IMG/VR virus record: IMGVR_UViG_3300027896_000002
Span: 10,128-74,127 of that record
DNA length: 64,000 bases
From: a virus
Strand: one strand, 5' to 3'
Made by a program: the position numbers and the translations under genes. Positions within the stretch are counted from its first letter, which is position 1. Each line of letters begins with the position of its first letter. Shown here piece after piece: positions 5,050 through 31,587 of the stretch. The notes under the pieces are model-generated. The model had not been told where the DNA came from. It did not search any database and saw nothing but the letters and a program-made list of their open reading frames with translations.

Positions 5050-5060
5050 TAGGGATTTAC

Positions 5061-5822: not shown

Positions 5823-6778
5823 TGAATGTTGTGATGCTTTCTAAACATGATTATGCTGGGAGCGGGTGGCAGATAGTCCAGGCTGTTCGTCGTCACACGA
5901 GGCATAATATTGTGCACGTCAAAACGACCTCCCATAAGCACGGTTATAAGACAGACTATATTCTAGATGGAAAAAATCGGGCAGTTGTTCAAGGGCTTGT
6001 GGACAAGGCTGATGTTGTTCACTTCAAGGGAGATGATCTTCCATCGAGAGATTGGTATGGAGTTAAGATCCCAGAGAAAGTGAAAATTATTCTTACCGTT
6101 GGGGGATCGTTTTTTAGAAGAAATGGAAGGAGGACAGGGCTTAGGCCAATTGAAGAGTATGTTAAAAGATCGGATTTTAGGACTGCCTTGTCTCCTGATT
6201 TGAATTATGATGAATTTAAGTCAGTGTATACTCCATACTTGATCGATAGCGAAAAAGCGGAGTATTCTTGGAAAGAGGATAGGGATGGAAAGTTTGTTAT
6301 TGGCTGCTATCCTGGAGTGAGAAAAGAAAAGGGTTTTGAATCAGTTGTCGAGCCTGCTTGGCGTCAGCTTGAAAAGGAAGGATATAAATTTGAGAAGGTG
6401 TTAACGATTGGAATGACATACGAACAAAGCGTTGGGGCCAAGAAGGGGATGTCAATATTTATAGATCAGATTTCCTTGGCCGGCTGCTATGGGAATTCTG
6501 CTCTTGAGGCCATGCAGTTTGGCATTCCTGTAGTTGCTTATATAGGAGATGTGGCTTTAAAGCATGCCATGGAAGAATTTAAAAAATCTCCGATTATGAA
6601 TCCTGGAAAAACAAAGGAGGGGCTTTATCTTTTACTCAAGAGGATACTGTCAAGAAAAATTGACTTGTCAGATATATCTAAAAAGACGAAATGTTACTGC
6701 GATGGTTTTCACTCCTATACCGTAGGGGCAAGGATATGGAATGAGATTTATGAAAAAGTTGCAAGCAAAAATGTTTAA
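5822..6778 (+). CDS. Glycosyltransferase (GT4-like)
   Basis: IFIDQI...YGNSALEAMQFGIPVV; ATG overlaps upstream TGA (ORF track starts at 5789). Confidence 0.75.
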   Translation: MNVVMLSKHDYAGSGWQIVQAVRRHTRHNIVHVKTTSHKHGYKTDYILDGKNRAVVQGLVDKADVVHFKGDDLPSRDWYGVKIPEKVKIILTVGGSFFRRNGRRTGLRPIEEYVKRSDFRTALSPDLNYDEFKSVYTPYLIDSEKAEYSWKEDRDGKFVIGCYPGVRKEKGFESVVEPAWRQLEKEGYKFEKVLTIGMTYEQSVGAKKGMSIFIDQISLAGCYGNSALEAMQFGIPVVAYIGDVALKHAMEEFKKSPIMNPGKTKEGLYLLLKRILSRKIDLSDISKKTKCYCDGFHSYTVGARIWNEIYEKVASKNV

Positions 6779-7379
6779 AAACGTTTTAGTTGTGTCTCCT
6801 CACACGGATGATGGTGAACTTGGGGCAGGGGGGTCATTGGCTAAATTCTCAAGAGAAGGAAGCCAAATTACTCATCTGGTGTTTTTTGATGGGGAAAAGC
6901 AGTCAGAGGAAATTTTAAAAGAGTTTGAAAAGTCAAACGGTATTTTTGCCCCATCTTCAAACAGGATAGTGGAGAGGCTTAAGATAAGAAGTTATGAAAA
7001 GGACCGTCAAAGAATATTGGATTTAATGATTGAAATTGAAAGAAGTTTTAAACCAGACCTTGTCTTTCTTCCCTCGTCGAGAGACTTTCATCAAGATCAC
7101 ATGACGGTTTCAAGGGAAGGGCTTAGGGCATTTAAATTTTCTACTATCTTCGGTTATGAGGAACCTTGGAATAACCTCGTGTTTGAGACGTCTTGCTTTA
7201 TTGAGATATCAAAAGGAGATCTTTCAAAGAAATTGCGGGCGTTAAATTGTTATAAGTCTCAAAAGGCGCACTATTATTTTTCAGATGAGATTATTCGATC
7301 ACTGGCTTTAGTCAGGGGAATGCAGATCAGGGCTCAGTACGCGGAGGCATTTGAGATCATTAGGATGATTGTTCATTGA
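6741..7379 (+). CDS. PIG-L/LmbE family N-acetylsugar deacetylase
   Basis: SPHTDDGELGAGG and DFHQDH metal-binding motifs; likely start 6771. Confidence 0.9.
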   Translation: MRFMKKLQAKMFKNVLVVSPHTDDGELGAGGSLAKFSREGSQITHLVFFDGEKQSEEILKEFEKSNGIFAPSSNRIVERLKIRSYEKDRQRILDLMIEIERSFKPDLVFLPSSRDFHQDHMTVSREGLRAFKFSTIFGYEEPWNNLVFETSCFIEISKGDLSKKLRALNCYKSQKAHYYFSDEIIRSLALVRGMQIRAQYAEAFEIIRMIVH

Positions 7380-7951
7380 GGAGTAATGGTTTGAAAATGA
7401 TAGAAAGATTCAAGTTTTGTCTGGAGATGAGAGAGAAATGTCCTGAGACTCTTGGGATTCATCCCTCAATAATTATCCCAGAATGGGTTTTAATTGGGAA
7501 AAATGTTTCAATTCATGAGAGAGTTATCTTGGGAAGTCAGGGTTTTGGATTTGCGAGAGATGAGGATGGCCATTGGTTTCATATCCCTCACGTTGGAAAG
7601 GTGATAATTGAGGATGACGTAGAGATATTTGAAGGGACAAATGTTTGCCGTGGTACGCTGGGAGATACTAAAATTGGCAGGGGGACGAAGATTGATGCCT
7701 TATGCCACATTGGGCATAATGCCGTGATAGGAGAAAATTGTATCATAACCGCTCATTGCATGATCGCAGGGTGCGTGATAGGAAATGACGTGTGGGTTGG
7801 CCCAAATTCAACGACTAAGCCCAAGATCCAGATAGCTGACAATGTGCTCATAGGCCAAGGTTCTAATGTCGTTGAGAGTATCCTAAAGCCTGGGGAAGTT
7901 TGGGCAGGAAATCCAGCTCGTTTTTTAAGAATGAGAAAACCGTTTGAGTAG
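7376..7951 (+). CDS. Hexapeptide-repeat acyltransferase (LpxD-like C-terminal part)
   Basis: GSQGFGF, VIIEDDVEI, TKIDALCHIGHN, WAGNPAR. Confidence 0.88.
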   Translation: MRSNGLKMIERFKFCLEMREKCPETLGIHPSIIIPEWVLIGKNVSIHERVILGSQGFGFARDEDGHWFHIPHVGKVIIEDDVEIFEGTNVCRGTLGDTKIGRGTKIDALCHIGHNAVIGENCIITAHCMIAGCVIGNDVWVGPNSTTKPKIQIADNVLIGQGSNVVESILKPGEVWAGNPARFLRMRKPFE

Positions 7952-7962
7952 AAAGGTAAAAA

Positions 7963-8217
7963 ATGTCATTGCATCCGGTGACTGATGAGGAGAGAAGAGC
8001 CAATAACCCAAAGATGTATGTGAGCAACAAGTGGACGATTTGTGAGTTGCTGCGAAAGATTTATATTTTGGCTGAAGCCAGGAATGATACAAGAACAATG
8101 CACCTTTCTCACGACGCTCTTTGCTATGCTAAAAGAATGAATCTTAAGCTAGGCCAAAAAGATCCGAAGTATGGAGAAGAGTGGTATTATGGTAAACGAG
8201 AAAGAAAAAATTATTAA
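7963..8217 (+). CDS. Hypothetical protein
   Basis: ORF with SD inside the glycan cluster. Confidence 0.55.
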   Translation: MSLHPVTDEERRANNPKMYVSNKWTICELLRKIYILAEARNDTRTMHLSHDALCYAKRMNLKLGQKDPKYGEEWYYGKRERKNY

Positions 8218-9136
8218 GAGGGCTTTGGTTACGGGCGGGGCAGGTTTTATAGGCTCTCACTTATGTGAGCGGTTGACGGGCATGGGGATTGAAGTAATTT
8301 CTCTTGATGATTATTCTGCTGGTCACATTGAAAATTTACGGAAAGTTCATTGCAAAAAAGTATATGGAGATGTGCTCAATGAATATTTGGTAATGGACTT
8401 GATGAAAGATGTGGATGTGGTATTTCACAACGCAGCAAGTAAAAAAACCATCTGCATCGCAGATCCTAAACATGATCTTGACGTAAATGCCAAGGGAACT
8501 TTGACACTGCTTACGGCAGCTTTGAAACAGGGGGTAAAAAAATTTATTCATGCATCAACTGGTTCTGTTTATGGACAGCCCTCCTGTTTTCCACAGGACG
8601 AAGATCACCCCTTGAGGCCGATCTCTTATTACGGCGTGAGTAAGTTGGCTGGGGAACGTTACGTTGAAATGTTTTACAAATTGTTTGGTTTAGACACGAC
8701 AATTTTGAGATATTTTCACGTGTATGGGCCTCGACAGGCTAATGGAAAATATGGCGGAGTGGTGGCAATTTTTATTACAGGCATGTTGATGGATTTGCCA
8801 ATATTTATTCACGGGGATGGTAGTCAAGAGAGATCTTTTACCTATGTGAAAGATATAGTAGACATAAATCTGGAAGCAATGAAATCTCCTTTTTCAAGTG
8901 GGCAGGTTTATAATTGTGCCTCTGGGCTGCACGTAAGCGTGCTTGATTTGCATCGGGAACTTGCAAGGCAATTAGATTGTAATGGAAAATCTCCAGTTTA
9001 TACAGAGAGTGATCTGGGAGAAGTTTTTAAGTTTGACGTTTCAAATGAAAAAGTCAAGAAGGATTTGAAGATAAATTTTACGTCGCTCGATGAAGGATTG
9101 CGGGAGACAATATCTTGGTTCAAGGTCAGTGCCTAG
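8171..9136 (+). CDS. NAD-dependent nucleotide-sugar epimerase/dehydratase
   Basis: VTGGAGFIGSHL, YGVSK (YxxxK), LRYFHVYGPRQ. Confidence 0.93.
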   Translation: MEKSGIMVNEKEKIIKRALVTGGAGFIGSHLCERLTGMGIEVISLDDYSAGHIENLRKVHCKKVYGDVLNEYLVMDLMKDVDVVFHNAASKKTICIADPKHDLDVNAKGTLTLLTAALKQGVKKFIHASTGSVYGQPSCFPQDEDHPLRPISYYGVSKLAGERYVEMFYKLFGLDTTILRYFHVYGPRQANGKYGGVVAIFITGMLMDLPIFIHGDGSQERSFTYVKDIVDINLEAMKSPFSSGQVYNCASGLHVSVLDLHRELARQLDCNGKSPVYTESDLGEVFKFDVSNEKVKKDLKINFTSLDEGLRETISWFKVSA

Positions 9137-9855
9137 TAGAGGTGATTGTCTTGAAGATATGTGCTTATCTACCCATTTATAAAAGAGAGGGACTTTTGGC
9201 GGAAACACTTCGAAGATTGAAACACCAGACATTGTCATTTGAGCGTATTGTAACTGTTGGAAGTTGTGACGAGGACAAGGAGATTGCAAAAAAATTTGGG
9301 GTTGATTATATTGGCCATGAAAACCATCCCTTGAGTGATAAGATTCAGGCAGGGGTGTCATACCTTCGTCAATTTAAACCTGATGCAATTATGGGCATAG
9401 GTTCAGATGATTGGGTTACAAGTAATTGGGTTGAGGAGGTCTCCAAATGCTTAGGAGAATTTGATATCATTGGGGCAGACCACTTTTATCTTTTTCTCGT
9501 AGATTCAAAGCCAATACAGTTGATTCGGTACTGTTATCCCTCTTCTCGGTATGGTGAGCCGATGGGCGCAGGCAGATTTGTATCAAGACGGATTTTGGAT
9601 AAGCTTGATTGGAGGCTTTATCCTCGGGGATTTGAATGGGGCCTTGACGGTAAAAGCCACAGCAGGATGGTGGCTTTAGGTGCAACGTACTCATTGTATA
9701 GAAGTGATAAAGCAAAAATCTTATGCCCAAAAGGAATTCAGGGACAATTGACCACTTGGGACCATGCGATCAACTCAGATCGCAGTAAGAAAATTGATGA
9801 TAAGCACTGGATCAGCACAAATTTCCCTGGCGTTGTAATGGAAGGGTCGGTATGA
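9115..9855 (+). CDS. Glycosyltransferase (GT2-like)
   Basis: LPIYKR, GIGSDDW, GAGR motifs. Confidence 0.7.
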   Translation: MVQGQCLVEVIVLKICAYLPIYKREGLLAETLRRLKHQTLSFERIVTVGSCDEDKEIAKKFGVDYIGHENHPLSDKIQAGVSYLRQFKPDAIMGIGSDDWVTSNWVEEVSKCLGEFDIIGADHFYLFLVDSKPIQLIRYCYPSSRYGEPMGAGRFVSRRILDKLDWRLYPRGFEWGLDGKSHSRMVALGATYSLYRSDKAKILCPKGIQGQLTTWDHAINSDRSKKIDDKHWISTNFPGVVMEGSV

Positions 9856-10643
9856 TTCTGATCGTCTCAAGGTTTGGTAGAATGAATAAATATCCAGATC
9901 AGGTTATGATGAGGAAAACATTGGCTGCTTTTTTAAGATCTCTGGACAATCAGACGGATAAGGGCTTCAGGGCTTTCTTAAGCTGCCATGATGTACCAGA
10001 GGGGTTCAATTATCCCTGGCTTGAATGGTGTTCGATGGCCGCTAACCCAGAGAACAGTGGCACAAAATACTGGAAACGATTCCCTATAAATCTAGATGAT
10101 CTTGGAGAAAGAATTGTCTGTACGTATGGCAGCAAAATTCAAGACTCTGGCCGTAAGGGGATTCACTCGGTGATAAAAGCAGGGCAATGGGCATATAGAA
10201 ATGGACTAAAAGATTTTTGGATAATGAGGATGGATAGCGACGACATGCTTGCAAAACGCACGATTGAAACTATTCACGCTCTTGATAAGCAAGGGATAGA
10301 GGCTATTTATAATAGACGCTGTCACATCTTTGACGCACGAACAAGAGAGATTGGGGAATATAATTACAGATCTTCTACAACCTGTAACGCTCTTAAGATG
10401 AGAATTGAGAAAAATATACTCCTGCGTTGGTTTTATCTTTGCACCAATCACACGAGATTTATCTCTGATGTGAGGAGAGATAAAATAAAATTTAAAGAGG
10501 TAGACTGGACTTATTGCATTGTCACTAATTCTAGGAATTCAATTTCTAGCAGGCCAACATTAACCGCAGAGAGATGGGCAAGGAAAATTGGCATGACGAA
10601 GAAATTATCAGATCGCTATGGCTTAGATCAGTTTGGGAGATAA
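9852..10643 (+). CDS. Putative glycosyltransferase (GT-A)
   Basis: SLDNQTDKGF, MRMDSDDML (DxD). Confidence 0.65.
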   Translation: MILIVSRFGRMNKYPDQVMMRKTLAAFLRSLDNQTDKGFRAFLSCHDVPEGFNYPWLEWCSMAANPENSGTKYWKRFPINLDDLGERIVCTYGSKIQDSGRKGIHSVIKAGQWAYRNGLKDFWIMRMDSDDMLAKRTIETIHALDKQGIEAIYNRRCHIFDARTREIGEYNYRSSTTCNALKMRIEKNILLRWFYLCTNHTRFISDVRRDKIKFKEVDWTYCIVTNSRNSISSRPTLTAERWARKIGMTKKLSDRYGLDQFGR

Positions 10644-11379
10644 CGTGATTGACATAATTGTTACAACGTATAATCGACTTCATTTTTTACAAAGTACTCT
10701 TGAAAGTCTTCTTGACAGCGTAACTAGTGAGCTGTTCAAACTTTATATCATTGATGATTGCAGCTTTGACGGGACGAGGGAATATCTTAGCAAGATGAAT
10801 AAATTTCTTGACATTTCTATCATCCTATCTGATGAAAGAAGAGGGGTCGTTCCAAACTTTAATTCTTTGTGGGATACAGTTATTTTAAATGAAAGGCATC
10901 CATTCTTGTGCTATCTGCAGGACGATATAGTTGCAGTGGAAAAAGATTGGCTTACCGTATTGACTGTGGCGTGGCACGAAATGAAAGACGCCTATAAGAT
11001 TGGTTTTTTGAGTGGGTATGATGCTCCAGAGCATCCAACAGAAAGAGAAATAATGTGGATGGGTCGAAATGTAAAGATTAAGAAGTCTACGTCAGGGCAA
11101 AATTTATTCGCTGATAAGAAGTTTTGGGCTTCTATAGGAAAGCCCCCTGAATTAAATTTTAATGGTTCGGTGCGTGGCTTTCCAGACAATGGTAAAGGGT
11201 CTAATATTGATGTCTGGTTTACAGGTTGTTATTCCTTGAGTAAATTTGACCAGAAAAATGCAGCTCCTAATTGTCTTTATAAGCAAGGCAAGAGGGTTAT
11301 GGTTATTCCAATGTTAAAGCATCTTGGCATTGAAAAAAAAGACTCAACTTGGCGACAAAATCGGGTCGGAGGGTTTTAA
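10633..11379 (+). CDS. Glycosyltransferase (GT2)
   Basis: IIVTTYNR, IIDDCSFDGT, YLQDD. Confidence 0.85.
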   Translation: MGDNVIDIIVTTYNRLHFLQSTLESLLDSVTSELFKLYIIDDCSFDGTREYLSKMNKFLDISIILSDERRGVVPNFNSLWDTVILNERHPFLCYLQDDIVAVEKDWLTVLTVAWHEMKDAYKIGFLSGYDAPEHPTEREIMWMGRNVKIKKSTSGQNLFADKKFWASIGKPPELNFNGSVRGFPDNGKGSNIDVWFTGCYSLSKFDQKNAAPNCLYKQGKRVMVIPMLKHLGIEKKDSTWRQNRVGGF

Positions 11380-11385
11380 GGAAAG

Positions 11386-12396
11386 ATGGGAAAAAGCGTA
11401 GCATATTTTGCTAACGGAATTGGAAATTTTATTATGATGATGCCTGCCCTGCAAGCAATGGCAACCTTGGCAGATAACAAGGTAGTAGACATCATTATAG
11501 ATAGCAATTGGGTTGACAACCGAAGACCCGCGGTCGAGGAGATCTGCACAGCTTGGCCTGTAATAGGAAAGATTATAAGGTATCCTAAACAAAAGTTCGA
11601 TAAAAATAGCTATGGGCACTGGTTCTTTACTGTTCATGGAATGACAAATGGCGCAGCCTCTATATTCCTTCCGAGAATGAAAAAGATTATTCCAAAACCC
11701 CACTGGAGATCTTCTCAAACGCATGAGAGAGATTATTATATGAATGTGGCGAGAGGGGTGGGGTACGAAGGTTTAGAACCAGAGATTCAGTTTCCATTGG
11801 CTAAGAATCCTATTGTTAATTTAACAAGGCCAATTATTGGTTTGTGCAATGGGTACTTTCGCACTTTTAATCATTATTGGGATAAAAAGGGATGGCAGTA
11901 TTTTCCAAGGTTGTCAGAAATTTTAGCACTGTATTTTGGTGGGTCTGTTGTTGGCCTTGGCCATGAGAATGAGATTCCAAAGGGGACAAAGCTTATTGTA
12001 GATTATGCAGGCAAACTTTCTATTTTGGAGACAGCTAAGGTTTTATCTCAGCTTGATTTGTTTATTACCACAGATACGGGGCTTATGCATCTGGCAGATG
12101 TACTTAATATCCCCACCATAGCAATGTTTGGGCCAACGCTTGTGACCAAAAACGGGATTAGGGGAGAGAATTCTTATGTTCTGCAAGCGGGCCTTAAGTG
12201 TGTCCCATGTCAGGAGACCTCAGCATATTATATGTGTAAGTTGAATGAATGCATGAGGTCTATTAAAACAGATGATGTGATGGCTAAGGCAAAAGAAATT
12301 TTGGGAGGACATGCCAATGAGCGAAGTTATCATAGCTGGAATTATAAAGTGGAGCGATCTTCAGAATTGGATAGAACCGTCTCCTCTGGATACTGA
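11386..12396 (+). CDS. Glycosyltransferase family 9 (heptosyltransferase-like)
   Basis: GIGN..M..PAL, FITTDTGLMHLA...PTIAMFGPT, CVPC...C...CM. Confidence 0.9.
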   Translation: MGKSVAYFANGIGNFIMMMPALQAMATLADNKVVDIIIDSNWVDNRRPAVEEICTAWPVIGKIIRYPKQKFDKNSYGHWFFTVHGMTNGAASIFLPRMKKIIPKPHWRSSQTHERDYYMNVARGVGYEGLEPEIQFPLAKNPIVNLTRPIIGLCNGYFRTFNHYWDKKGWQYFPRLSEILALYFGGSVVGLGHENEIPKGTKLIVDYAGKLSILETAKVLSQLDLFITTDTGLMHLADVLNIPTIAMFGPTLVTKNGIRGENSYVLQAGLKCVPCQETSAYYMCKLNECMRSIKTDDVMAKAKEILGGHANERSYHSWNYKVERSSELDRTVSSGY

Positions 12397-20839: not shown

Positions 20840-21291
20840 TGAAGTATTTTTTTGAAGACATTGAGCGGCAAAGGAAATTAAGGAAGATTTTAGATGAATG
20901 GATCGGGACGCCTCACCGTCACCACTGTGGCGTAAAGGGGTTGGGGACTGATTGCATTCACTTTGTCGCCCGCGTCCTTGAAGAGATGGGGATATTGAAG
21001 TGGCGAAAGGATTTAGTGCCTGATTATCCACCTGACTGGCACATGCATAATACAAAAGAGCTGTTAAAAGAGCATCTTGAGAAAGAAATTCGAGGCGAGT
21101 GGGTTAACTTGAATACCCTGGTCAATGGTGACATAACCCTTAGTTATTTTGGAAAAGCCTCATCACACGCGGGTATTTACATGGATGGGTCTATCTACCA
21201 GGCTTTGGATCGTATTGGAGTAAGAAAAATTAATTTTAATGATCCGTGGTTAAAAAAACATATAAAATTTGCATATAGGATTTTAATATGA
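20839..21291 (+). CDS. NlpC/P60 family tail-associated peptidase
   Basis: WIGTP.H...KG.G.DC, HAGIY. Confidence 0.9.
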   Translation: MKYFFEDIERQRKLRKILDEWIGTPHRHHCGVKGLGTDCIHFVARVLEEMGILKWRKDLVPDYPPDWHMHNTKELLKEHLEKEIRGEWVNLNTLVNGDITLSYFGKASSHAGIYMDGSIYQALDRIGVRKINFNDPWLKKHIKFAYRILI

Positions 21292-23762
21292 GCACGGGTG
21301 GAGCGATTGGTGGAATATTGGGTGCAGTGATTGGCGCCCTCTTTGCTTATTTTACAGGGGGACTTAGCATTGTAGCAGGCGCCCTTATTGGGGGTTCGAT
21401 TGGTTATACGGTTGGCACTATCATTGATCCTCAAAAGCCAGATGTAAGAACCGCTGGCGTTCCGATTCAGGCCCTTCAATTCATGTCAAATGTGATAGGA
21501 TCTCCAATTCCTGATTTATTGGGGACGGGAAAAATTGTTGGATTTCTTCTTTGTTTTGGAAAAGAAAGAACTGTGGCAACTTGGCAAAGGACTGGAGGGA
21601 AAGGTGGTTCAGGAAGTGGTAGGCAATTCGCTGGTTATAATTATTATGCCTCTTGGGTTGTGGGAATTTGCTTAGGTCCGATTGATTCACTTTATACTAT
21701 TTTTAGAGATTCGGAGGATGTCGTTTGGACGGGTGAGGTTACTCTTCCTGTATCGGGTGGGAAGCAAACGATTGCAATACCAATTATGGGGTCGGTTGAT
21801 TTTTATTTTGGAACGAATGATCATCAACTTAACCCCCGCATTGCGGAGACTTTGCAGGCGGCCAGTCAATTGACTCAAGCCGCTGGAATTTTAAGTGGAG
21901 ACACAGTCATTGAACTTTCTGACAGTACCTTTTTTAATGTTAATGATCGCATCCTTATCTATGGCACAGCTACTGAATTGTCGGCAGATTGGGAAGAAAA
22001 TCATATCATCCAGTTGAAAGCTGGTGCTAATATTACCCTTACCACTCCGATGCTCTATTCTTATGTCAACGCGACAGTCTATAATTACAGTGCAGTTGGA
22101 GGTGTAGGTACCGCGATCAATTATCCATACCGAAATCTTTGTTTCGCTTTCTTTGACGACTGTCTTCTTGGAGGTTCAAACAGAATTCCAAGCATGCAAT
22201 TTGTGATTAGAAAATCTCCGGTTATTGCCTTTTCACCCTTTAATCAGATTCAAACTTTTGATTATAATCCAGCTCATGCCATGTGGTACATTTTGAAGAG
22301 CATGACTGGATTTCCAGAGGGATGGCTTCATGAGGGTGATTTCGCAGATTTGGCAGAAAAACTTGCCCTTGAAAATCGGGGGATTAGCCTTTTGATCGAT
22401 TCACTTCAAGCTTGTCTTAGTTATATTGAAAATATTGACACCCACATCGATGGCATCTTGCGATATGGTTCGGACGGAAAATTTCATCCTAAACTAATCA
22501 GAAATGATTATATTCTTGGAGACCTCCTCTCTATCGATGAATCAATGCTCATAGATGAACCAGAAATTTCGAGGAAAAGTTGGATCGATACCGTCAACGA
22601 GATGAAAGTTCAGTATTCAGAGATTACGGGGACTACAGGAAGAGTTACAGCCATGGGCCAGTATCTTGGATTCATTCCCCTTCATTTAGAAATTGATGGG
22701 GATTATGTCTATGTTTGTGGCCAGCAGGCATACGGCGTAGGAGAAACGAGTTACTATTATGCCGCAGTGAGGAAAATGAATGTAAGTGACTTGATGATAG
22801 TGGACGAGTTTGATCTTCACCAAGCGACTGACAACTTGAACAATGCCTTTTACCGAGTTCACGTGGATGGAGACTATTTGTATTTGGTTGGTTCTTCCTA
22901 CGTAGATGGCAAGGTTCAAACTGTTATTACCAAAAGAGATAAGAATAACCTTGCTATTGGACTTTGGACAAACTATCATTACCTTGGAGATCCAGCTTAT
23001 TCGGTTAACACAGGGATGGATTGCATTACAGATAATTTTTATTTATATGTTACAGAAAGCTGGAATGATGCTTATTACCATCAAGCGGCGTGGAGGCAAA
23101 AATTGAATAAATTGGATGGCTCCTTAATTTGGGAAGGAGGCTGGCCTTCCGTTATGACAGGTTATGATGGGATAGTCGATGCTGATCCCTACGTTATCAT
23201 AGCAGGAACGGCAGGAGGAGATAGGGCCATAGAGAAGATAAATATGGCAACGAATGCGTCTAATATATACAGTGTTTCACGTGATCGCTATTCAAACGAG
23301 GGCATTGTTTTATATGATGATGGCTATTATTATGTTTGTGGTAAAGGTTATGCAACGGCATACGGTGATTTTAGAGTTTCAGTGTTAAAATACGATGACT
23401 TTTTTATAAAGGTCTGGGAATGGACCAAAAATTATTTTACCGCTCCGCCTGATTTAGTTGAAGAATTACTTAACTGCGTGGTAGATGCTTCGGGAGTCTA
23501 TTCGATAGGACGTTTACAATATAACCCAATTCCTGGCATCTATTATTATCAGGCGGTATTTGCAAAGGTGAGCCTTGATGGCTCCCCCCTATGGGATCTT
23601 CAGCATGAGACTCAGTACCGGGCGGCCATGAGAGCGATCGGGCTATTAGATACCGATACCTTTGTAGTTGGAACCTATGACGACAACCAGTCCGTTTCGA
23701 TCGTGGATCGTTATGGCTATCTTGAAAAAAGGCTAACAGCAACGGGGGCAATGATAGGATAA
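21288..23762 (+). CDS. Tail tip (megatron/gpJ-like) N-terminal part fused to a beta-propeller
   Basis: TM-like N-terminus, GICLGPID, DYNPAH, ENRGIS, TVNE.KV.Y; C-terminal ~370 aa with repeated VDGDY.Y.G/KYD blades. Confidence 0.75.
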   Translation: MSTGGAIGGILGAVIGALFAYFTGGLSIVAGALIGGSIGYTVGTIIDPQKPDVRTAGVPIQALQFMSNVIGSPIPDLLGTGKIVGFLLCFGKERTVATWQRTGGKGGSGSGRQFAGYNYYASWVVGICLGPIDSLYTIFRDSEDVVWTGEVTLPVSGGKQTIAIPIMGSVDFYFGTNDHQLNPRIAETLQAASQLTQAAGILSGDTVIELSDSTFFNVNDRILIYGTATELSADWEENHIIQLKAGANITLTTPMLYSYVNATVYNYSAVGGVGTAINYPYRNLCFAFFDDCLLGGSNRIPSMQFVIRKSPVIAFSPFNQIQTFDYNPAHAMWYILKSMTGFPEGWLHEGDFADLAEKLALENRGISLLIDSLQACLSYIENIDTHIDGILRYGSDGKFHPKLIRNDYILGDLLSIDESMLIDEPEISRKSWIDTVNEMKVQYSEITGTTGRVTAMGQYLGFIPLHLEIDGDYVYVCGQQAYGVGETSYYYAAVRKMNVSDLMIVDEFDLHQATDNLNNAFYRVHVDGDYLYLVGSSYVDGKVQTVITKRDKNNLAIGLWTNYHYLGDPAYSVNTGMDCITDNFYLYVTESWNDAYYHQAAWRQKLNKLDGSLIWEGGWPSVMTGYDGIVDADPYVIIAGTAGGDRAIEKINMATNASNIYSVSRDRYSNEGIVLYDDGYYYVCGKGYATAYGDFRVSVLKYDDFFIKVWEWTKNYFTAPPDLVEELLNCVVDASGVYSIGRLQYNPIPGIYYYQAVFAKVSLDGSPLWDLQHETQYRAAMRAIGLLDTDTFVVGTYDDNQSVSIVDRYGYLEKRLTATGAMIG

Positions 23763-23766: not shown

Positions 23767-25170
23767 ATGACAATAGATGCAATAAACATCAAACAGTCAA
23801 CCGCGGACCCAATGGTCATTGATACTGGGAATCAGAAGATTCAGCAGAGGGTTGCATCAAAGACAGTTCAGTTTGGGCTCTTTACCAATAACCGAAACGC
23901 CGTGTGGGCCTGTAAGAACCAATTGAGAAAGGAGTCCTACCCGTTCGCTACGCTTAATTTAAAGATGAATCGAAACGCTTTTCCCTTTGAGATTGGCGAT
24001 ACCTTTAAGTTCTCTTACTCAAAATATAACATCGTAGACATGGTGGTCAGGGTTCTGCAAAGAAGTGAAGCGGAACTTGAATCAGAGGAGATTAACATCA
24101 TAGTGATGGAAGACCTTTTTCAGATCACTAATACAATTTCAGAATATTCACCTTCTCAAGAACGTTCTCAACCGAGGGTTGATTATGCGGTTAAGAATAT
24201 CATTCACGAAAAGCTCTTTGAACCCGTCTATGCTTGGTCTCTTGGAGAAGTAGCTATAACTCCCCTGGCCGCTCGAGAGTCTCAGATTGACCTTGGGTTC
24301 AATGCTTATATGAGTTTGGATGGTGGGGCTTCCTATTCTCCAAACCCAATTGCCCAGGGATTATTTTTTAGGGCTTATGGGGCACTTATTGGAACCTATC
24401 CCAAGGAGACTTATGAAATCGACGAGCTGGTGGGAATGGTAATCGACTTTTCTAATGCAGATGTTGACTTAATTGAAAGTCAAACTTGGCCTATGATCCT
24501 TTCTGGGAATCAAAATCTTGCTCTTCTTGGAGATGAAATCATTTCTTTTAAGACCATCACACCAATTTCTGGATCTCAGTATAAGCTTGAGGACATAATT
24601 CGAGGGCGCTACGGTACGGAAAAACAGGCCCATGTCGATGGCGAAACCTTCTTTTTTCTTGGCCAAGATATTCCTGTCATTACGAACAATGACATTTCAA
24701 CGGGAGCTGATAGGTTCTTTAAGCTCGTAGGATTTAACGCCGTTGAGTTTGGGGATATTTCGGCGGCAACTGCCATGGAACATCAATTTTTAGGGGTGGC
24801 CAAAACGCCTTATGTCCCGATCAACTTTGAGGCTAACGGTGGCTCATTTGCCTCTCGGTATGATACCGACATCATTCTTACCTGGTCATCAAGGTATCGA
24901 AACAAAGGAGCGGGGATCGGAATTCCAGGGACGGTTCTTTCTGATCTGACCTATGAGGGGTTGTTTGAGATTGAGGTTTGGGTTGGAGGCATCAAGGTAA
25001 GAACCCAAAGCGCCATTGACGCTTTGACATGGACTTATACGGAAGCGATGAACATCTCTGATAATGGTTCTTTGGCGAGCGAGGTAACATTTAAGCTCTC
25101 TAACTATCGAACGGAAGACGGGATCACTTACTATTCAAGCCAAGCTCAAGTGACCTGTAAAAAGAATTAG
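23767..25170 (+). CDS. Tail tip protein C-terminal part
   Basis: SYP...L, EIGD.F, NLALLGDEIISF...RGRYGT motifs of GTA-like megatron. Confidence 0.75.
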   Translation: MTIDAINIKQSTADPMVIDTGNQKIQQRVASKTVQFGLFTNNRNAVWACKNQLRKESYPFATLNLKMNRNAFPFEIGDTFKFSYSKYNIVDMVVRVLQRSEAELESEEINIIVMEDLFQITNTISEYSPSQERSQPRVDYAVKNIIHEKLFEPVYAWSLGEVAITPLAARESQIDLGFNAYMSLDGGASYSPNPIAQGLFFRAYGALIGTYPKETYEIDELVGMVIDFSNADVDLIESQTWPMILSGNQNLALLGDEIISFKTITPISGSQYKLEDIIRGRYGTEKQAHVDGETFFFLGQDIPVITNNDISTGADRFFKLVGFNAVEFGDISAATAMEHQFLGVAKTPYVPINFEANGGSFASRYDTDIILTWSSRYRNKGAGIGIPGTVLSDLTYEGLFEIEVWVGGIKVRTQSAIDALTWTYTEAMNISDNGSLASEVTFKLSNYRTEDGITYYSSQAQVTCKKN

Positions 25171-25181: not shown

Positions 25182-26402
25182 ATGGACAACGATAAATATG
25201 GCCTTCACGATGTCCTCTATGGAGTGCAGGGTTGGGATGCGATCATGGCCACCGACATGCAGATCATCAACGACCAGATGCCGACGAGAATCATAGGGAC
25301 TCTCGGAGAAACTGTGGTAGCCTACGAAGCCTTGTACCAAAAGGCCGCTGATTCAAAATGGTGGAAGGCTAAGGCGGATGGGGCCAAGCAGCCATGCCAG
25401 GGGTTAGCGGTTGAGGGTGGAGATGCTGATGATGAGATAAGAATTCATCGGATGGGGGAGATTACCAATGTCTCTTGGGCTTGGGCAACTATCGGAGCGG
25501 CCATCTACCTTGACCCCTCTACGGAGGGTGCTTTGACCCAAACGCCTCCAGCTGATAACGTTCAAATAATTGGTTATGCTAAGGCGGCAACCATAATGAT
25601 TGTAATGATTCAGGTGGTTGGCACCGGAACCGTTATGGTTCATGCGCTTGGAGGAGACGCTCATAGCGCTGATCTTAAGGCAAATCTTGACAATAAAATC
25701 TCAGATGGGGATCTTTTTTCTACCCTCCCTGGTGAGATTAACATTTTAACGGAGAAAGATGTTCCTGTCGGAACTGATCTGCTTTTAATTGAGGACAGTG
25801 AAGCAGACAACGCTAAAATGAAGGTGCAAATTGCGAACTTACCCGCTGGTATACCTGCCCCTCATGCACTGGGAGGAGATCAGCACACTGCCGACTCCAA
25901 AGCCAACCTTGATTCTAAATTAACAGACGCGACACTCATTTCCACCCTCCCTGGGGAAATTGCCGTACTTGAAGAAAAAATTATTCTTGACGCTGACGAT
26001 GTGATACTTGCGGAGGATAGTGCCGACGATAATGAAAAGGTAATGGTGAAAGCATCCAATCTTCCTGGCGCTGTTTTCAGCCAGGGCGGAACAATTTATA
26101 AATCAGATGGGATAGTTGACGCAGCCAACATCATTATCTGGGAGGCACCTTTTGCCTGCACGGTGACGAACGTAAAAGGATACCGGGTGGGGGGAACTGG
26201 GGCAACGATCAACGCAAGAAAGAACGGAGCGTCAAATCACCTTTCATCAAACTTATCTTTGTCAAGCACCGATGCCTGGGAAGATGGCGGGGTGGTTCAA
26301 AATACTGCCTATGCCATTGAAGATAAGCTTGAGATCATGTTGGTTTCGGTGGCTGGCAACCCGACTCAGATAGCAATCAAAGTAAATTTCAAGAGGCCTT
26401 AA
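25182..26402 (+). CDS. Tail fibre-like virion protein with two ~70-aa internal repeats
   Basis: KAKAD, IYL....GALTQT.P N-domain; repeat HALGGD.H.AD.KANLD.K...EDS. Confidence 0.7.
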   Translation: MDNDKYGLHDVLYGVQGWDAIMATDMQIINDQMPTRIIGTLGETVVAYEALYQKAADSKWWKAKADGAKQPCQGLAVEGGDADDEIRIHRMGEITNVSWAWATIGAAIYLDPSTEGALTQTPPADNVQIIGYAKAATIMIVMIQVVGTGTVMVHALGGDAHSADLKANLDNKISDGDLFSTLPGEINILTEKDVPVGTDLLLIEDSEADNAKMKVQIANLPAGIPAPHALGGDQHTADSKANLDSKLTDATLISTLPGEIAVLEEKIILDADDVILAEDSADDNEKVMVKASNLPGAVFSQGGTIYKSDGIVDAANIIIWEAPFACTVTNVKGYRVGGTGATINARKNGASNHLSSNLSLSSTDAWEDGGVVQNTAYAIEDKLEIMLVSVAGNPTQIAIKVNFKRP

Positions 26403-26413: not shown

Positions 26414-27763
26414 ATGGCAAGACTTTGGACTTGTGGCTTTGAGCTAAATTCTACAACCACTGGGATCGAATGGTCTGGTGGTTCTCACAATGTTTCTATT
26501 GGAATAACGAACGTTAGAAGCGGGACCTATTCACTACACTTTCCAGCTAACATCCAAAGTTATATTTATCAGCATTTTAACTCTGGTAATGTCAATGGTC
26601 CTTTCTATTTTCGTATGTATGTCTATGTGACCCATGCCCCAGCAGGTGCATCAGATATTTTAGACTTTCAAGATTCAGGTGGCACTCATAGACTATATGT
26701 ATATCTTAACGCCGATATGACCTTAACCCTGAAAGATGGGGCGGGTGTTACAATAGGGTCATCATCTGCTTTTAGTTTAAATGATTGGCATTGCATAGAA
26801 GCCAGTTATTATAACAATGGGGTGTCTGGAAAGGCTGAATTGGAAGCACGCCTCGACTATGGCGCTTTTGCTTCAACAACGACAGATGCTAATAATGGAA
26901 CAGTTAATCTTGTAAATATTGGAAATGAGTTGAGTGACGCACAATTAATCTTTGACATAGATGACCTCGCGATAAACGACAATACGGGTGCATTTCAGAA
27001 TAGTTATCCAGGAAGCGGAAAAGTAATCCGTTTAAAGCCGAACGCCGATGGAGATGCACACGCATGGCTTAAATCTGGTGGCGGTGCAGGAGATGCAAAC
27101 AACTATAACCAGGTATATGAAGTAACCCCAGATAATGCGGCGACATATCTAAAGGCTTTAAACCTTAACGTAGAGGATTTTTACAATTGTGACAACTCTG
27201 GAATAGGGGCCGGTGATATCGTCAATGTGGTTCAGGTTGGTGTTAGGTTTTCAGGCTATGCCAGTGGTTCTTATGGGCAACAATTTAAGGTTGAGTGTAA
27301 GAAAGCTTCAGCTGGAACAATTGCCCAAGGTTCAGCGATTGTAGGGGTAAATAATTGGAGAACAAATACACCTTCTCTCCCGTTTTTTCCTACTCTTACT
27401 TTACATCAAGACCCAGATGGTGGTGCCTGGACGCAGGCTACGTTAGACACCATGCAGATAGGAATGAAACAAACTGGTTATTATGCAGGTTGTTATGATT
27501 ATGTTTCTACTATATGGGCTTACGTAGATTATACCCCGGCAGCAACCACGACGACTACTACCACTACAACCTCAACTACAACGACGACAACGACGACGAC
27601 CACCACGACGACGACGACGACGACCACCACCACCACTACTACCACCACCACCACCACCACTACTACGACGACCACTACTACGACGACCACTACTACGACG
27701 ACCACTACCACGACGACCACCACTACCTCGCCACCATTATTTGTCCTGTGGCTGAGCGGGTGA
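26414..27763 (+). CDS. Virion beta-sandwich/lectin-like protein with C-terminal poly-Thr tract
   Basis: CGFE N-terminus, RSGTYSL, WHCIE, IDDLAIND; 60 Thr + 1 Ser at 27545-27727. Confidence 0.7.
   Translation: MARLWTCGFELNSTTTGIEWSGGSHNVSIGITNVRSGTYSLHFPANIQSYIYQHFNSGNVNGPFYFRMYVYVTHAPAGASDILDFQDSGGTHRLYVYLNADMTLTLKDGAGVTIGSSSAFSLNDWHCIEASYYNNGVSGKAELEARLDYGAFASTTTDANNGTVNLVNIGNELSDAQLIFDIDDLAINDNTGAFQNSYPGSGKVIRLKPNADGDAHAWLKSGGGAGDANNYNQVYEVTPDNAATYLKALNLNVEDFYNCDNSGIGAGDIVNVVQVGVRFSGYASGSYGQQFKVECKKASAGTIAQGSAIVGVNNWRTNTPSLPFFPTLTLHQDPDGGAWTQATLDTMQIGMKQTGYYAGCYDYVSTIWAYVDYTPAATTTTTTTTTSTTTTTTTTTTTTTTTTTTTTTTTTTTTTTTTTTTTTTTTTTTTTTTTTTTTSPPLFVLWLSG
27545..27727 (+). repeat. Poly-threonine coding tract (ACN codons)
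   Basis: 61 codons mixing ACC/ACG/ACT/ACA with one TCA. Confidence 0.95.
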
Positions 27764-27777
27764 GAAAGGAGAAGATT

Positions 27778-27963
27778 ATGGAAAAAGTTTTATGTAAAGA
27801 TTGTAAGGCTTGGGAAAGAGATGGGGCAGACGGGATATGTTGTAAAAATGCTCCAAGGCCAGAATGTCTTCCAATCGATAAGAAAGGATATACTCTTGTG
27901 TTGCCAAGAACCCAGGCTAATGGAGGATGCTTTGAAGGCATCCTGATAGAGGTGGCAAGTTGA
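27778..27963 (+). CDS. Small Cys-rich protein
   Basis: MEKVLCKDCKAW...C..GC; SD AAGGAG. Confidence 0.6.
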   Translation: MEKVLCKDCKAWERDGADGICCKNAPRPECLPIDKKGYTLVLPRTQANGGCFEGILIEVAS

Positions 27964-29024
27964 AGCTAAGCGTAATTATCCCAAATCGAAACGACACAGT
28001 GATGCTTGCCATCACGGTCAGAAGCATCCTTGAAGAGCTGAAAGCCGTGGAGGGTGGCGGGGAGATCGTGGTCGTTGACAATTCAGACGAGGACCTTTGG
28101 CTAATTTTGAAGACCATGAACGTTAGCCCTCTTGCCCTTCAATACGTCGAGGAGGGGAAAGTTCAACTCATCCATCAAAAGTTTCAAGGTATCTATTCGG
28201 CCAGGGCAGAGGCCATTCGAGCCGCCCGGGGGGAGTATGTCTATAACGTCGACAGCCACATGCTGGTCGGCCACAACACCCTGAAGGATATGGTTGACTT
28301 TATGGACGCAGATAAAGAGGGAAAGGTTGGCTTTGCCTTCTCGCCGATCGGTTGGTTCAGTGCCCACGAGGCCCTTGCAAGGCACGATATCCGAATTGAT
28401 CAGGGGACGATTTTTGGCAGCTGGGGAAAACGGTATTATAGGCCGATGAAGATCTGCTGGAACTTTGGCTCGTGCATCTGTCGAACGAGATGGTTCAATG
28501 AGGATTTTGGAGGATATGGTTTCTTTGATAAAAAAAGAATCTCATGGGGAGGGGGAGAATTTTATGCCGCCATAAAATCCTGGCTTCTTGGATATGAGAA
28601 CTGGGCGGTGCCGACAAGCCCTCAATACCACATTGGGCCATTTTCCAAGGAGATTGAAGCAAGAACATCCTACCGTTTTAGACAGTATGGGGGTTCAGGG
28701 AACGGAAAACTTGGGATAGGGATTTTTGCAGCTTTCTATGCTCTTGGCGGAGACGAGATGAAGGAAGAGGCATGGAACGCAGAAATTGCTGGAGTGGGTA
28801 AAAATTATGGCATCAGCGTCGAGCGAGATTGGGAAACGGCCAAGGAACTTGCCCACGAGGATTGGCTGTGGTTAAAGGAAAAGCAGAAGCTAACCTATTT
28901 TAAGCTCATGGAAAAACAACCCTGGAAAGAGGACGGATGGGGAGATTGGGAAAATTGGAAGCCAGACAAAGACGCTGGGATAAAAAGGGTCTTCAATCTG
29001 GCCAACTTAAAAGTGATTGGTTGA
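27960..29024 (+). CDS. Glycosyltransferase (GT2; ppGalNAc-T-like motifs)
   Basis: SVIIPNRN, EIVVVDN, ARGEY...DSH (DxH), WGGGE. Confidence 0.85.
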   Translation: MKLSVIIPNRNDTVMLAITVRSILEELKAVEGGGEIVVVDNSDEDLWLILKTMNVSPLALQYVEEGKVQLIHQKFQGIYSARAEAIRAARGEYVYNVDSHMLVGHNTLKDMVDFMDADKEGKVGFAFSPIGWFSAHEALARHDIRIDQGTIFGSWGKRYYRPMKICWNFGSCICRTRWFNEDFGGYGFFDKKRISWGGGEFYAAIKSWLLGYENWAVPTSPQYHIGPFSKEIEARTSYRFRQYGGSGNGKLGIGIFAAFYALGGDEMKEEAWNAEIAGVGKNYGISVERDWETAKELAHEDWLWLKEKQKLTYFKLMEKQPWKEDGWGDWENWKPDKDAGIKRVFNLANLKVIG

Positions 29025-29473
29025 AAGGTGTCATCGCTGACGTTCATCCGAGCGTAAAGTTCGGAAAGAATTGTTTAGTCTGGTCTTTTGCCGTGATCTG
29101 TCAGGGCGTGGAGATAGGAGAAAATTGTGCAATCGGTTCGGGGGTGTTTATAGGAAAGAATTGCAGAATAGGCAATAACGTAAGGATCCAAGATAAGGCA
29201 CACTTGACTCCGGGCATGATCGTTGAGAACAATGTCTTCATCGGGCCATGCGTAGTAACAATGAACGATAAATATCCAGTTGTATTAAATCCTGATTATG
29301 CGAAACGGCCCCCTTATTTTGAGGAGGGGTGCTCAATCGGAGCTGGAGCAATCATACTTCCAGGAGTCCGAATAGGGAGGTTCTCTGTAATTGGGGCAGG
29401 GGCTGTCGTGACTAAAGATGTAATAGCAGAATCAATCGTGGTTGGATGCCCTGCAAAAAAGATAACTGATTAG
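28937..29473 (+). CDS. Hexapeptide-repeat N-acyltransferase (WbpD/FdtC-like)
   Basis: VFIGPCVVTMND.YP, SIGAGA.ILPGV.IG, VVGCPAK; start likely near 29021. Confidence 0.88.
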   Translation: MGRLGKLEARQRRWDKKGLQSGQLKSDWLKGVIADVHPSVKFGKNCLVWSFAVICQGVEIGENCAIGSGVFIGKNCRIGNNVRIQDKAHLTPGMIVENNVFIGPCVVTMNDKYPVVLNPDYAKRPPYFEEGCSIGAGAIILPGVRIGRFSVIGAGAVVTKDVIAESIVVGCPAKKITD

Positions 29474-30089: not shown

Positions 30090-30830
30090 ATGAAAAGAAG
30101 ATATGACTGGATACGTGACCTGCCAGACCATAGAGATTTTATGTTTTTGAGGCTGCCGACGAAGATTCCAAACACGGTAGATCTTCGCCCGAAGTGCTCT
30201 CCGATAGAGAATCAGCTACAACTTGGAGCTTGTACGGCTAATGCTGGAGTTGGCATCTATGAATGCCTTGAGCACATTCAGGGGATGAAGTTTGATGATA
30301 AATCCCGTTTGTTTCTATACTATAATACCCGCCTTATCCAAGGAACTGTCAGTACTGACAGTGGGGGAACGATTCGGAATACCTTCAAGGCAGAGGCGAA
30401 ATATGGCATCTGTTCAGAGAAACTGTGGCTATATGATATTCAAAAGTTTGCGGTGTTACCACCGAAAAATTGTTATGCTGACGCGATAAAGCACACAATA
30501 ATTATTTATCAGAGAATGCAGACCCTCGATGATTTGCTCAACTGTCTTGCTCTCGGATTTCCATTTGAATTTGGCTTCTCAGTTTATCAATCTTTTGAAA
30601 GTGATAAAGTGGCGAAGACGGGAATCGTACCAATGCCGAAGAAGACCGAAGCGTTTCTCGGGGGCCATGCGGTAGACGGAGTTGGCTATGAGATGGACAA
30701 GAAGTGGATCATCTGTCGGAACTCGTGGGGTCCGCAGTGGGGGGACTACGGATATTTTTATCTCCCGTTTAATTACATTTCTAATCCTAACCTGGCCGCC
30801 GACTTTTGGATGGCAAAAAAAGAGACGTGA
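30090..30830 (+). CDS. Papain-like C1 cysteine peptidase
   Basis: Q..LGACTANA (Cys), GGHAV (His), RNSWG (Asn). Confidence 0.92.
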   Translation: MKRRYDWIRDLPDHRDFMFLRLPTKIPNTVDLRPKCSPIENQLQLGACTANAGVGIYECLEHIQGMKFDDKSRLFLYYNTRLIQGTVSTDSGGTIRNTFKAEAKYGICSEKLWLYDIQKFAVLPPKNCYADAIKHTIIIYQRMQTLDDLLNCLALGFPFEFGFSVYQSFESDKVAKTGIVPMPKKTEAFLGGHAVDGVGYEMDKKWIICRNSWGPQWGDYGYFYLPFNYISNPNLAADFWMAKKET

Positions 30831-30866
30831 TGCCTAAGACGCTCGTACTGTCTATTCTAAAGAGAG

Positions 30867-31061
30867 GTGATGGTTATGATTGAAATTATTTTGACAGCCA
30901 TTCTTAGAAAGGCCATATTTGCTGCCCTAATAGCTGTAGTATTTTTATGTTGGGACAAAGGGTATTTTAGGGCATTTGATACAGATAAGGTGATAGCAAA
31001 TGATCCACAGGCAATCGCGATTCTTTATGCTGGTCTTTTTATTTCCCTTGCTTTTGCTTAG
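30867..31061 (+). CDS. Small two-TM protein (holin-like)
   Basis: Hydrophobic, directly before the lysin. Confidence 0.5.
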   Translation: MMVMIEIILTAILRKAIFAALIAVVFLCWDKGYFRAFDTDKVIANDPQAIAILYAGLFISLAFA

Positions 31062-31587
31062 CTGTAAGGGGGAAATAACAGCAGAGGCAATAGCTAAGCC
31101 AGTGGCGGCTAAGGTGTCAATTCCTGAACCTGTTGGGAAGTATGATCTTTCTTTCAAGCGCTGGGGAGAGTTTTATTTTCCCTTTGACGACTGGCGCTGG
31201 TGGAAATCTCAGGGGATAGCGGAAAGCAACCTTAACCCAAATGCGGTGTCATGGTGTGGGGCTGTTGGGGTAATGCAAATTATGCCAGCTACTGCAACGG
31301 GTTTAGGCGTAAAGAACAGGTTAGATGCAGAAGAGAGTATCCAGGGAGGAATTAAATACGATAATCAGGTCGATAGAGTTTTTAAAAGTGTTGACCAGCC
31401 AGAGCGAAGGAAATTTATGTTTGCAGGTTACAACGCTGGGCCTGGAAATATTACGAAGGCTAAAAAATTGGCCGGTTCTGATACGTGGGATGTTACCGCA
31501 AATTCTCTTAACCTTGTTACCGGCCATAATTCGTTAGAGACAATAAACTACGTTAAGAGGATCTGCAAAATAAAAAAAGACCTTTAA
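31000..31587 (+). CDS. Lytic transglycosylase endolysin (SLT/MltF-like)
   Basis: AES..NPNAVS..GA.G.MQIMP.T, YNAGPGN, ET.NYV.RI; lipobox-like LLSC. Confidence 0.92.
   Translation: MIHRQSRFFMLVFLFPLLLLSCKGEITAEAIAKPVAAKVSIPEPVGKYDLSFKRWGEFYFPFDDWRWWKSQGIAESNLNPNAVSWCGAVGVMQIMPATATGLGVKNRLDAEESIQGGIKYDNQVDRVFKSVDQPERRKFMFAGYNAGPGNITKAKKLAGSDTWDVTANSLNLVTGHNSLETINYVKRICKIKKDL

Follow-up and report, generated by a model that had tools for sequence, protein, structure and literature searches.

The window analysed here, a stretch of 64,000 nucleotides, comprises bases 10128–74127 of a 74,127-bp IMG/VR virus record (IMGVR_UViG_3300027896_000002) that is rated complete by CheckV, and has a G+C content of 42.7%. 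On its plus strand runs a head-to-tail morphogenesis operon, in which four tightly packed genes at positions 26414–29473 are placed after the tail genes and before the lysis block. They encode an appendage protein with a long tract of threonine residues, a small cysteine-rich protein, a glycosyltransferase (GT) and a sugar N-acetyltransferase. No promoter- or terminator-like site is found between the four genes, transmembrane (TM) segments are absent from all four proteins, and the DNA of 26414–29473 has no match among GenBank phages. The features of this cassette are the following (positions in the window; ORF, open reading frame; E, expectation value):

26414–27544, plus strand: conserved N-terminal domain of the appendage protein, about 377 amino acids, phrog_14065 family (phrog_14065, E 5e-58 over residues 1–428)
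27545–27727, plus strand: poly-Thr tract of 60 Thr and 1 Ser, residues 378–438, proposed O-glycosylation acceptor or stalk
27728–27763, plus strand: hydrophobic C-terminal peptide SPPLFVLWLSG and stop codon, from the translation; first Ser codon at 27728–27730
27778–27963, plus strand: 61-amino acid Cys protein with 6 Cys, a putative zinc-ribbon-like accessory, 14 nt after the poly-Thr ORF
27960–29024, plus strand: predicted soluble GT-A glycosyltransferase of 354 amino acids, GT27-like catalytic domain followed by a helical C-terminal region
28937–29473, plus strand: predicted hexapeptide (left-handed beta-helix) sugar N-acetyltransferase of the QdtC/WlbB class (PF00132, E 5e-27)

The appendage protein is encoded by an ORF of 449 amino acids (26414–27763, plus strand), which is the sole Ser/Thr-rich ORF of at least 100 amino acids in the 64-kb window. 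A first-pass annotation of the DNA had reported 60 threonines and one serine followed by a short hydrophobic tail, which was confirmed base for base, and had taken the use of all four Thr codons as a sign of selection at the protein level. The codon counts of the tract (ACC 22, ACG 21, ACT 14, ACA 3, TCA 1) agree with this; ACA is depleted in comparison with the rest of the phage (ACC 67, ACT 55, ACA 47, ACG 40). Only the dinucleotide AC of codon positions 1 and 2 is constant, which fits selection for threonine. Imperfect units of 15 and 30 nt with a match of 78–80% are recognized by Tandem Repeats Finder (TRF), and the tract has therefore probably grown by repeat expansion.

Residues 1–377 of the protein have more than 230 metagenomic homologues, with 36–47% identity at 100% coverage. 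In nearly all of them, the conserved part ends in "...W.xVDYTP", after which the sequences diverge completely into hypervariable tails. Most tails in the phrog_14065 family comprise 12–30 residues and have a hydrophobic end such as ...LLGVG or ...MALMGIG, while other members possess tails of hundreds of repeat residues. From these alignments, the window protein looks like a short-tailed member of the family in which the linker has been expanded to 60 Thr. Residues ~23–190 weakly resemble a ConA-like beta-sandwich (profile against CIP1, 3zyp, E 1.3e-3), and the nearest named ESM cluster of the N-terminal domain is Laminin_G_3. The homologue gp13 of Streptomyces phage Hiyaa, annotated as "minor tail protein", is located between the major capsid and the head-to-tail adaptor genes; in other contigs, the neighbours of phrog_14065 homologues include coat, portal, and adaptor genes. 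Judged by these neighbourhoods, the family would represent an appendage of the structural module. The ORF had been introduced as the last tail gene; the ORF itself stands, and its assignment to the tail, which was derived from gene position alone, is not established because the homologues in other phages sit in head or neck modules.

Extreme low-complexity C-termini were observed among phrog_14065 members in the loci L194–L273. Repeats of the type SPSxSxSPS reach up to 1,387 residues (L218:5762–~11060), the tail encoded by L255:6998–9577 has 478 residues with 94% Ser/Thr, and in L204 (2170–6990) an extra poly-Thr/Ser ORF of 1,607 amino acids is found just upstream of the appendage gene. The neighbourhoods of these extreme-tailed members are rich in Methyltransf_24 as well as GT2.

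Concerning the reality of the tract, 97% of the sampled words are present in the likely source run, a freshwater metagenome (X1). The Logan contigs of X1, which were built independently, include both flanks of the tract at a depth of ~165x with zero differences and break off within it, 88 nt from its left edge and 51 nt from its right edge. A read-level check of the tract length, as proposed at first pass, thus confirms the flanks and supports the existence of the tract; its exact length is not bridged by the independent contigs. Runs X2 and X3 give no coverage, and X4 covers 27200–27301 only, at a depth of 2; the small index shares are accordingly no guide to habitat. From the break of the independent assembly within the tract, the short tails of most family members and the repeat units recognized by TRF, it could be argued that the tract arose as an artefact of assembly or repeat expansion, or that it is a neutral hypervariable microsatellite, in which case a short linker, as found in most of the family, would be the normal state of the 449-amino acid protein. 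Such an origin is scarcely credible in view of the two flanks that reach into the tract at high depth, of a reading frame that is held over 61 codons with mixed third positions, and of the Thr tracts of 60–350 residues in the same place in relatives. Because relatives have even longer tracts in this position, an artefact is unlikely, with some small probability left to it.

In an alternative frame, an ORF at 27514–27963 translates the tract into a stretch rich in Asp, His, and Tyr and continues into the Cys gene. A conserved frameshift fusion of tract and Cys gene was considered and rejected, stop codons separating the two in the related loci L002, L066, and L073; the ORF is treated as a coincidence, since relatives do not keep it.

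The TTG start codon of the GT gene and the stop codon of the Cys gene overlap. The GT is assigned by Pfam to PF00535 only (54 bits at a gathering cutoff of 23.3; E 2.5e-14). The DxH and WGG.E motifs, for which a GT2 enzyme of exactly these coordinates had been singled out at first pass, are D98-S-H100 and W196-G-G-G-E200. Among 99 relatives found, 33 were aligned; in these, D40-N-S, D98-x-H100, W196, and H224 are invariant and G197–G199 are nearly so. An alignment-based AlphaFold2 (AF2) model of the enzyme has a predicted local distance difference test score (pLDDT) of 92.8 and a predicted template modelling score (pTM) of 0.92. When the model was compared with the PDB by Foldseek, the top ~30 matches were all GT27 enzymes (GalNAc-T2, PGANT9, T10, TgGalNAc-T3, T1, T12, T4, and T7; E 8e-15 to 1e-12), followed by TarP (E 3e-12). 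A VIA-align search of 48,161 representative chains placed mouse GalNAc-T1 (8v9q; Z 24.6, 281 amino acids, root mean square deviation 3.0) and TgGalNAc-T3 (8uhv; Z 24.0) first, with K4CP (18.3), WrtF (18.0), heparosan synthase (17.7), SpsA (17.5), TarS (16.9), and TarP (16.7) next; the lead of GT27 is ~6 Z units over the next GT-A family and about 6–8 over TarP and TarS. In the alignment of the family profile with GalNAc-T10, DSH falls on LDSHCE and WGGGE...H224 on WGGEQYE...GHI, the Glu being offset by one residue. The likeness to polypeptide GalNAc-transferases that had been suggested from the motifs is thus borne out by both structure searches, and in both its fold and the architecture of its metal site the modelled enzyme is similar to the catalytic domain of GT27.

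Phage glycosyltransferases that decorate hydroxymethylcytosine DNA are known (Pyle et al. 2024, in the reference list of PMC12619734), and the enzyme might be envisaged to glycosylate modified DNA bases (hypermodification of the hydroxymethylcytosine type) and not protein. With a fold closest to polypeptide transferases, a gene in the late structural operon that adjoins the tract, and a linkage to poly-Thr in other contigs too, this is very improbable.

The GT family looks virus-restricted. Relatives of the GT have zero protein matches in 50,697 GenBank phage records, and among the representatives of 185,579 prokaryote species there is one full-length match, on a 6-kb contig of a metagenome-assembled genome (MAG). 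This GTDB match (L275; CBDUMJ010000116.1, 6.3 kb) is binned to an "uncultured archaeon" MAG and probably represents a virus-derived contig that ended up there. Matches among the viral predicted structures of BFVD are weaker than those to GT27.

The co-occurrence of poly-Thr ORFs and GTs, proposed as a check at first pass, was approached from the GT, from the tract, and from within the appendage family, and it recurs on all three sides. From the GT side, 72 IMG/VR loci encoding relatives of the window GT ("family A") were scanned for tracts with at least 80% Ser/Thr in 25 residues, and five of them contain such tracts (L002, L065, L066, L073, and L005). The first four show the contiguous order poly-Thr ORF, Cys protein, GT; in L005, the poly-Thr ORF precedes a Cys-like ORF, after which comes a second and more distant DxH GT. 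No homologue of the N-terminal domain of the window protein was detected in these tract-bearing loci (tblastn, E 1e-5). The parts upstream of the tracts differ in sequence and length, being a 165-amino acid domain in L002 and regions of about 330–470 amino acids in L065 and L066, and neither PHROG nor Pfam gave a match to the N-terminal domains of the remaining poly-Thr proteins. The tract-linked GTs are split over two distinct clades of the family tree, both well supported.

From the tract side, at least 120 viral loci were found to contain an uninterrupted run of at least 24 ACN codons. Among the matches listed, a real poly-Thr ORF (at least 100 amino acids) is present in 70 loci and a DxH GT-A in seven, namely L106, L113, L132, L135, L153 (the L002 contig), L179, and L182. 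In all seven cases, the poly-Thr ORF is immediately followed by the GT gene in the same orientation, the two being 4–85 nt apart or overlapping (L132 by coordinates), and among these matches no such enzyme is found elsewhere in the loci. The GTs of L005, L106, L113, L132, L179, and L182 ("family B") have kept DxH, FGGEE, and the downstream His. Tract-linked GT lineages number at least four: two family-A clades, family B, and the GT of L135.

Two family-B GTs (L132:2627–4540 and L106:3744–5792) were seen to carry a fused C-terminal region of ~300 amino acids with Cys-rich ends. For L106 only, this region gives a weak match to CmcI/rhamnosyl O-methyltransferase-like proteins (E 2.3e-4; 21.4 bits against a cutoff of 23.2). 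The fused methyltransferase-like region suggests that the glycan may be methylated.

Within the appendage family, 69 non-redundant loci of phrog_14065 relatives were compared, 16 of which have Ser/Thr-rich tails. PF00535 occurs in 20 of the 142 same-strand neighbouring ORFs of the Ser/Thr-rich-tailed members and in one of 133 for 17 members without such tails (Fisher p 1.3e-5). Other neighbours of the Ser/Thr-rich-tailed members are GT1-type enzymes, UDP-glucose dehydrogenases, epimerases, and 11 Methyltransf_24 proteins. In L255, a protein of the Glyco_transf_7C type, which carries the WGGE module, is encoded just upstream of the 478-residue Ser/Thr tail.

The small Cys-rich gene that had been placed next to the tract at first pass is present as described. 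It is preceded by a Shine-Dalgarno sequence of its own (AAGGAG, 8 nt upstream), and its product has four invariant Cys (CxxC...C...C) as well as conserved W12, P26, P28, and T45. The gene is kept between poly-Thr ORF and GT in L002, L065, L066, and L073 and before the GT in L003. No match to the protein was found in Pfam, PHROG, or NCBIfam, and its ESM neighbours are viral clusters without names.

The sugar N-acyltransferase predicted for the last gene of the cassette proved to be closest to N-acetyltransferases of the QdtC/WlbB class, with best E values of about 1e-27. In the PDB, it matches 7s43 (1e-27), WlbB (3mqg, 2e-27), a WxcM-like protein (4mzu, 3.5e-25), and QdtC (3fs8, 5e-20), O-acetyltransferases reaching about 1e-12 only; the NeuD/PglB/VioB subfamily of NCBIfam is matched with E 4.5e-27, which is under the curated cutoff. 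The ORF overlaps the 3' end of the GT gene, as it does in L002, and an acetyltransferase gene is found 3' of the GT in both L002 and L003. These matches hint at an acetamido-sugar donor. No aminotransferase was found among the window ORFs scanned with Pfam.

The interpretation that we regard as fairly probable is that the four genes constitute a late-operon cassette in which the Thr tract would be O-glycosylated in the cytoplasm by the adjacent GT27-like enzyme. The proposal of an enzyme-substrate cassette for a "phage mucin", put forward in the first-pass annotation, finds support in fold and synteny, and none of the computational checks named there spoke against it; transfer onto the tract, like the identity of the sugar, the anomeric linkage, and the presence of the product on the particle, is what we infer beyond the observed sequence features, fold relationship, operon layout, and recurrent synteny. 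Late in infection, the appendage protein, consisting of a ConA-like domain, the 60-Thr tract, and an 11-residue hydrophobic end, would be made in the host cytoplasm. The soluble GT-A enzyme, with a divalent metal bound by DxH and His and a nucleotide sugar as donor, would transfer sugars onto the Thr hydroxyls of the tract. The glycosylated tract might then form an extended, stiff, hydrophilic, and protease-resistant mucin-like stalk leading from the ConA-like domain to the hydrophobic peptide. The QdtC/WlbB-class N-acetyltransferase would supply or, most likely, finish the acetamido-sugar donor, and the conserved 4-Cys protein would be an accessory, possibly an adaptor or chaperone. Since other phages show this gene order too, it is probable that some phages produce mucin-like appendages of their own.

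Several observations weigh against this interpretation. As regards the enzyme, K4CP chondroitin polymerase is ahead of GalNAc-T10 in the comparison of the profile with the PDB (E 6e-12 and 4.8e-6, respectively), no ricin-type lectin domain of GT27 is detected in the GT by Pfam, residues 253–354 being helical in the model, and no membrane anchor of GT27 is found in it (maximum 19-residue hydropathy 0.93, no TM segment). As regards the genes, L003 comprises the Cys gene, the GT, and the acetyltransferase without a poly-Thr ORF; ~65 of the 72 family-A loci have no Ser/Thr-rich protein within 10 kb; and for the ~50 other poly-Thr viral loci listed, no GT family is among the 25 commonest Pfam families of the neighbours. 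A first test within the appendage family, for which a local GT hidden Markov model (HMM) and a Ser/Thr cutoff of 0.6 were used, gave no significant association (p 0.27). This HMM missed GTs that were detected later by Pfam, and the threshold of 0.5 used in the Pfam-based comparison was picked after the p 0.27 result, which is a weakness of that comparison. The ORF counts in it are furthermore not independent, as ORFs share loci and the phages are related.

From the family-A loci devoid of a Ser/Thr-rich protein it follows that the wider GT family must have other acceptors. That a GT is encoded next to each viral poly-Thr ORF was rejected as a general rule on the basis of the Pfam neighbours of the ~50 poly-Thr loci. 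Because of these two sets of loci, the link between tract and GT is one of particular sub-lineages and extends neither to every poly-Thr protein nor to the whole GT family.

In the loci L006–L064, which contain GT relatives of 35–44% identity (~65 contigs of roughly 45–50 kb), the GT gene occurs in cassettes without a Ser/Thr-rich ORF. Judged by eye from the ORF translations alone, these cassettes would also contain an epimerase, ORFs resembling methyltransferases or sulfotransferases, and a GT paralogue (MKLSIIISERNDP...), and they adjoin an apparent M15-type peptidase and an apparent terminase.

It might alternatively be assumed that the GT and the acetyltransferase act on another acceptor, either host envelope glycans, in the manner of a moron for O-antigen conversion or one like TarP, or, as is the case in mycobacteriophages, other proteins of the virion, the tract being an unglycosylated flexible linker that lies upstream by chance. 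TarP and TarS, GT2 wall-teichoic-acid GlcNAc-transferases of which TarP is prophage-encoded, share with the window GT a soluble GT-A architecture and a similar size and are strong structural matches; the best PHROG match of the GT is a GtrB-like O-antigen conversion protein (E 3e-4), and morons are typically located where these genes are, between tail and lysis genes. The scarcity of Ser/Thr-rich ORFs near family-A GTs and the cassette of L003 would fit such a role as well. The structural scores of TarP and TarS are, however, clearly under those of GT27, and their published acceptor is the ribitol phosphate of teichoic acid; we know of no link of either enzyme to Thr-rich proteins. Poly-Thr ORFs are moreover contiguous with at least four GT lineages despite unrelated N-terminal domains, the genes of the window are translationally coupled within a late structural operon, and the GenBank phages in which no GT relative was found include temperate ones. 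Taken together, another acceptor is rather unlikely, and glycosylation of the tract remains the preferred interpretation.

Beyond the cassette, the following features of the window are of relevance:

2504–3826, plus strand: major capsid gene
3919–12396: glycan gene block of 8.5 kb, directly 3' of the major capsid gene
21288–23762 and 23767–25170: gpJ/Rcc01698-like host-specificity protein, split in two ORFs (tail genes)
25182–26402: 406-amino acid protein (tail gene), sole match weak (phrog_30025)
30090–31587: C1 peptidase and SLT transglycosylase of the lysis block, which further contains TM proteins

The glycan gene block encodes a GT1-like and three or four GT2-like enzymes, a PIG-L deacetylase, an LpxD-like acyltransferase, an SDR epimerase/dehydratase, and a GT9 heptosyltransferase-like protein. 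Its products could serve to extend the glycan on the Thr tract; other virion proteins or DNA are further possible substrates. The two gpJ/Rcc01698-like ORFs, with 4 nt between them, match consecutive parts of phrog_1101 (profile positions 20–360, then 361–794). In the translation of the 406-amino acid protein, a motif of ~90 residues (HALGGD.H.AD.KANLD.K..D...STLPGEI..L.EK) is duplicated internally, two copies being present. In the lysis block, an SLT lytic transglycosylase whose N-terminus bears a hydrophobic, lipobox-like segment (...LLLLSC) stands beside a papain-family C1 peptidase (PF00112, E 6e-14), with small TM proteins flanking the two; a relative of the C1 peptidase is also found near the GT in locus L008.

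Among characterized enzymes, the GT27 polypeptide GalNAc-transferases (T1, T2, T10, and Toxoplasma GalNAc-T3), which are the initiators of mucin-type O-glycosylation, are the nearest counterparts of the window GT. The GT-A domains align over 278–281 residues (Z 24.0–24.6), and DxH, WGG(G)E, and the downstream His are found at similar spacing. In Toxoplasma, the Thr-rich mucin domain of CST1 is glycosylated by TgGalNAc-Ts (PMC5225312), and the window GT gene likewise adjoins a Thr-rich putative acceptor. By criteria other than fold and metal site, the window GT does not appear to be a GT27 member: lectin domain and anchor are lacking, and K4CP is ahead at the profile level. It is only 17–20% identical to these enzymes and, unlike them, is predicted to be soluble, possesses a helical C-terminal region in place of the lectin domain, is placed by Pfam in PF00535 only, and would act in the bacterial cytoplasm, outside any secretory pathway, the host being a prokaryote.

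A second parallel is offered by mycobacteriophages (Che8 and relatives; Freeman et al. 2023), for which virion glycans on the C-termini of capsid and tail-tube proteins are reported (summarized in PMC12619734). In both cases, phage GTs are encoded in the structural gene block, and the glycans of the mycobacteriophages are reported to be added to C-terminal parts in the cytoplasm. In contrast to the homopolymeric Thr tract of an appendage, the mycobacteriophage acceptors are the C-termini of capsid and tail-tube subunits, and neither a GT27-like enzyme nor a Cys partner is described in the accessible texts.

Ser/Thr-rich glycoproteins of bacteria have systems of their own, with the GT-B enzymes GtfA/B or membrane-linked machinery of the Pgf/GtrB type. 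The serine-rich repeat adhesins (GtfA/B) and the Pgf/Cnm system resemble the window locus in having Ser/Thr-rich low-complexity regions, dedicated enzymes encoded nearby, and extended stalks; these glycoproteins are, unlike phage particle proteins, exported to the cell surface. Dense O-glycosylation of streptococcal Ser/Thr-rich disordered regions, including those of Pgf/Cnm, has been reported (PMC12041528).

A search of the full-text literature revealed no precedent for phage poly-Thr proteins, for GT27 in phages, or for mucin-like phage proteins. In the accessible texts, phage virion glycosylation has so far been documented only for the C-termini of mycobacteriophage capsid and tail-tube proteins. 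The locus described here would constitute a different system, combining a homopolymeric Thr stretch as putative acceptor with a soluble enzyme whose nearest relatives among solved structures are the eukaryotic mucin initiators, and this pairing is seen again in several environmental phages that are unrelated. To find glycosylated phages in metagenomes, a gene for a Ser/Thr-tailed structural protein with a DxH GT-A gene next to it on the 3' side may serve as a simple genomic signature.

A more far-reaching proposal, which is put forward only tentatively, is that a nearly virus-confined GT27-like clade builds mucin-type (HexNAc-O-Thr; HexNAc, N-acetylhexosamine) bottle-brush stalks on phage particles in the bacterial cytoplasm, with a small zinc-binding partner aiding in the process. 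If this were true, mucin-type O-glycosylation would not be purely eukaryotic, phages would possess its closest non-eukaryotic relatives, and the pair of poly-Thr ORF and GT would be a portable module attachable to unrelated virion proteins. If the activity is confirmed, the locus would provide a bacterial-cytoplasm enzyme for the dense O-glycosylation of Thr tracts, useful in glycoengineering, and a data point on the evolutionary origin of GT27. For the phages themselves, confirmation would mean a new kind of surface structure, with possible effects on adsorption, on adherence to mucus or exopolysaccharide, on resistance to proteases, and on recognition by the immune system.

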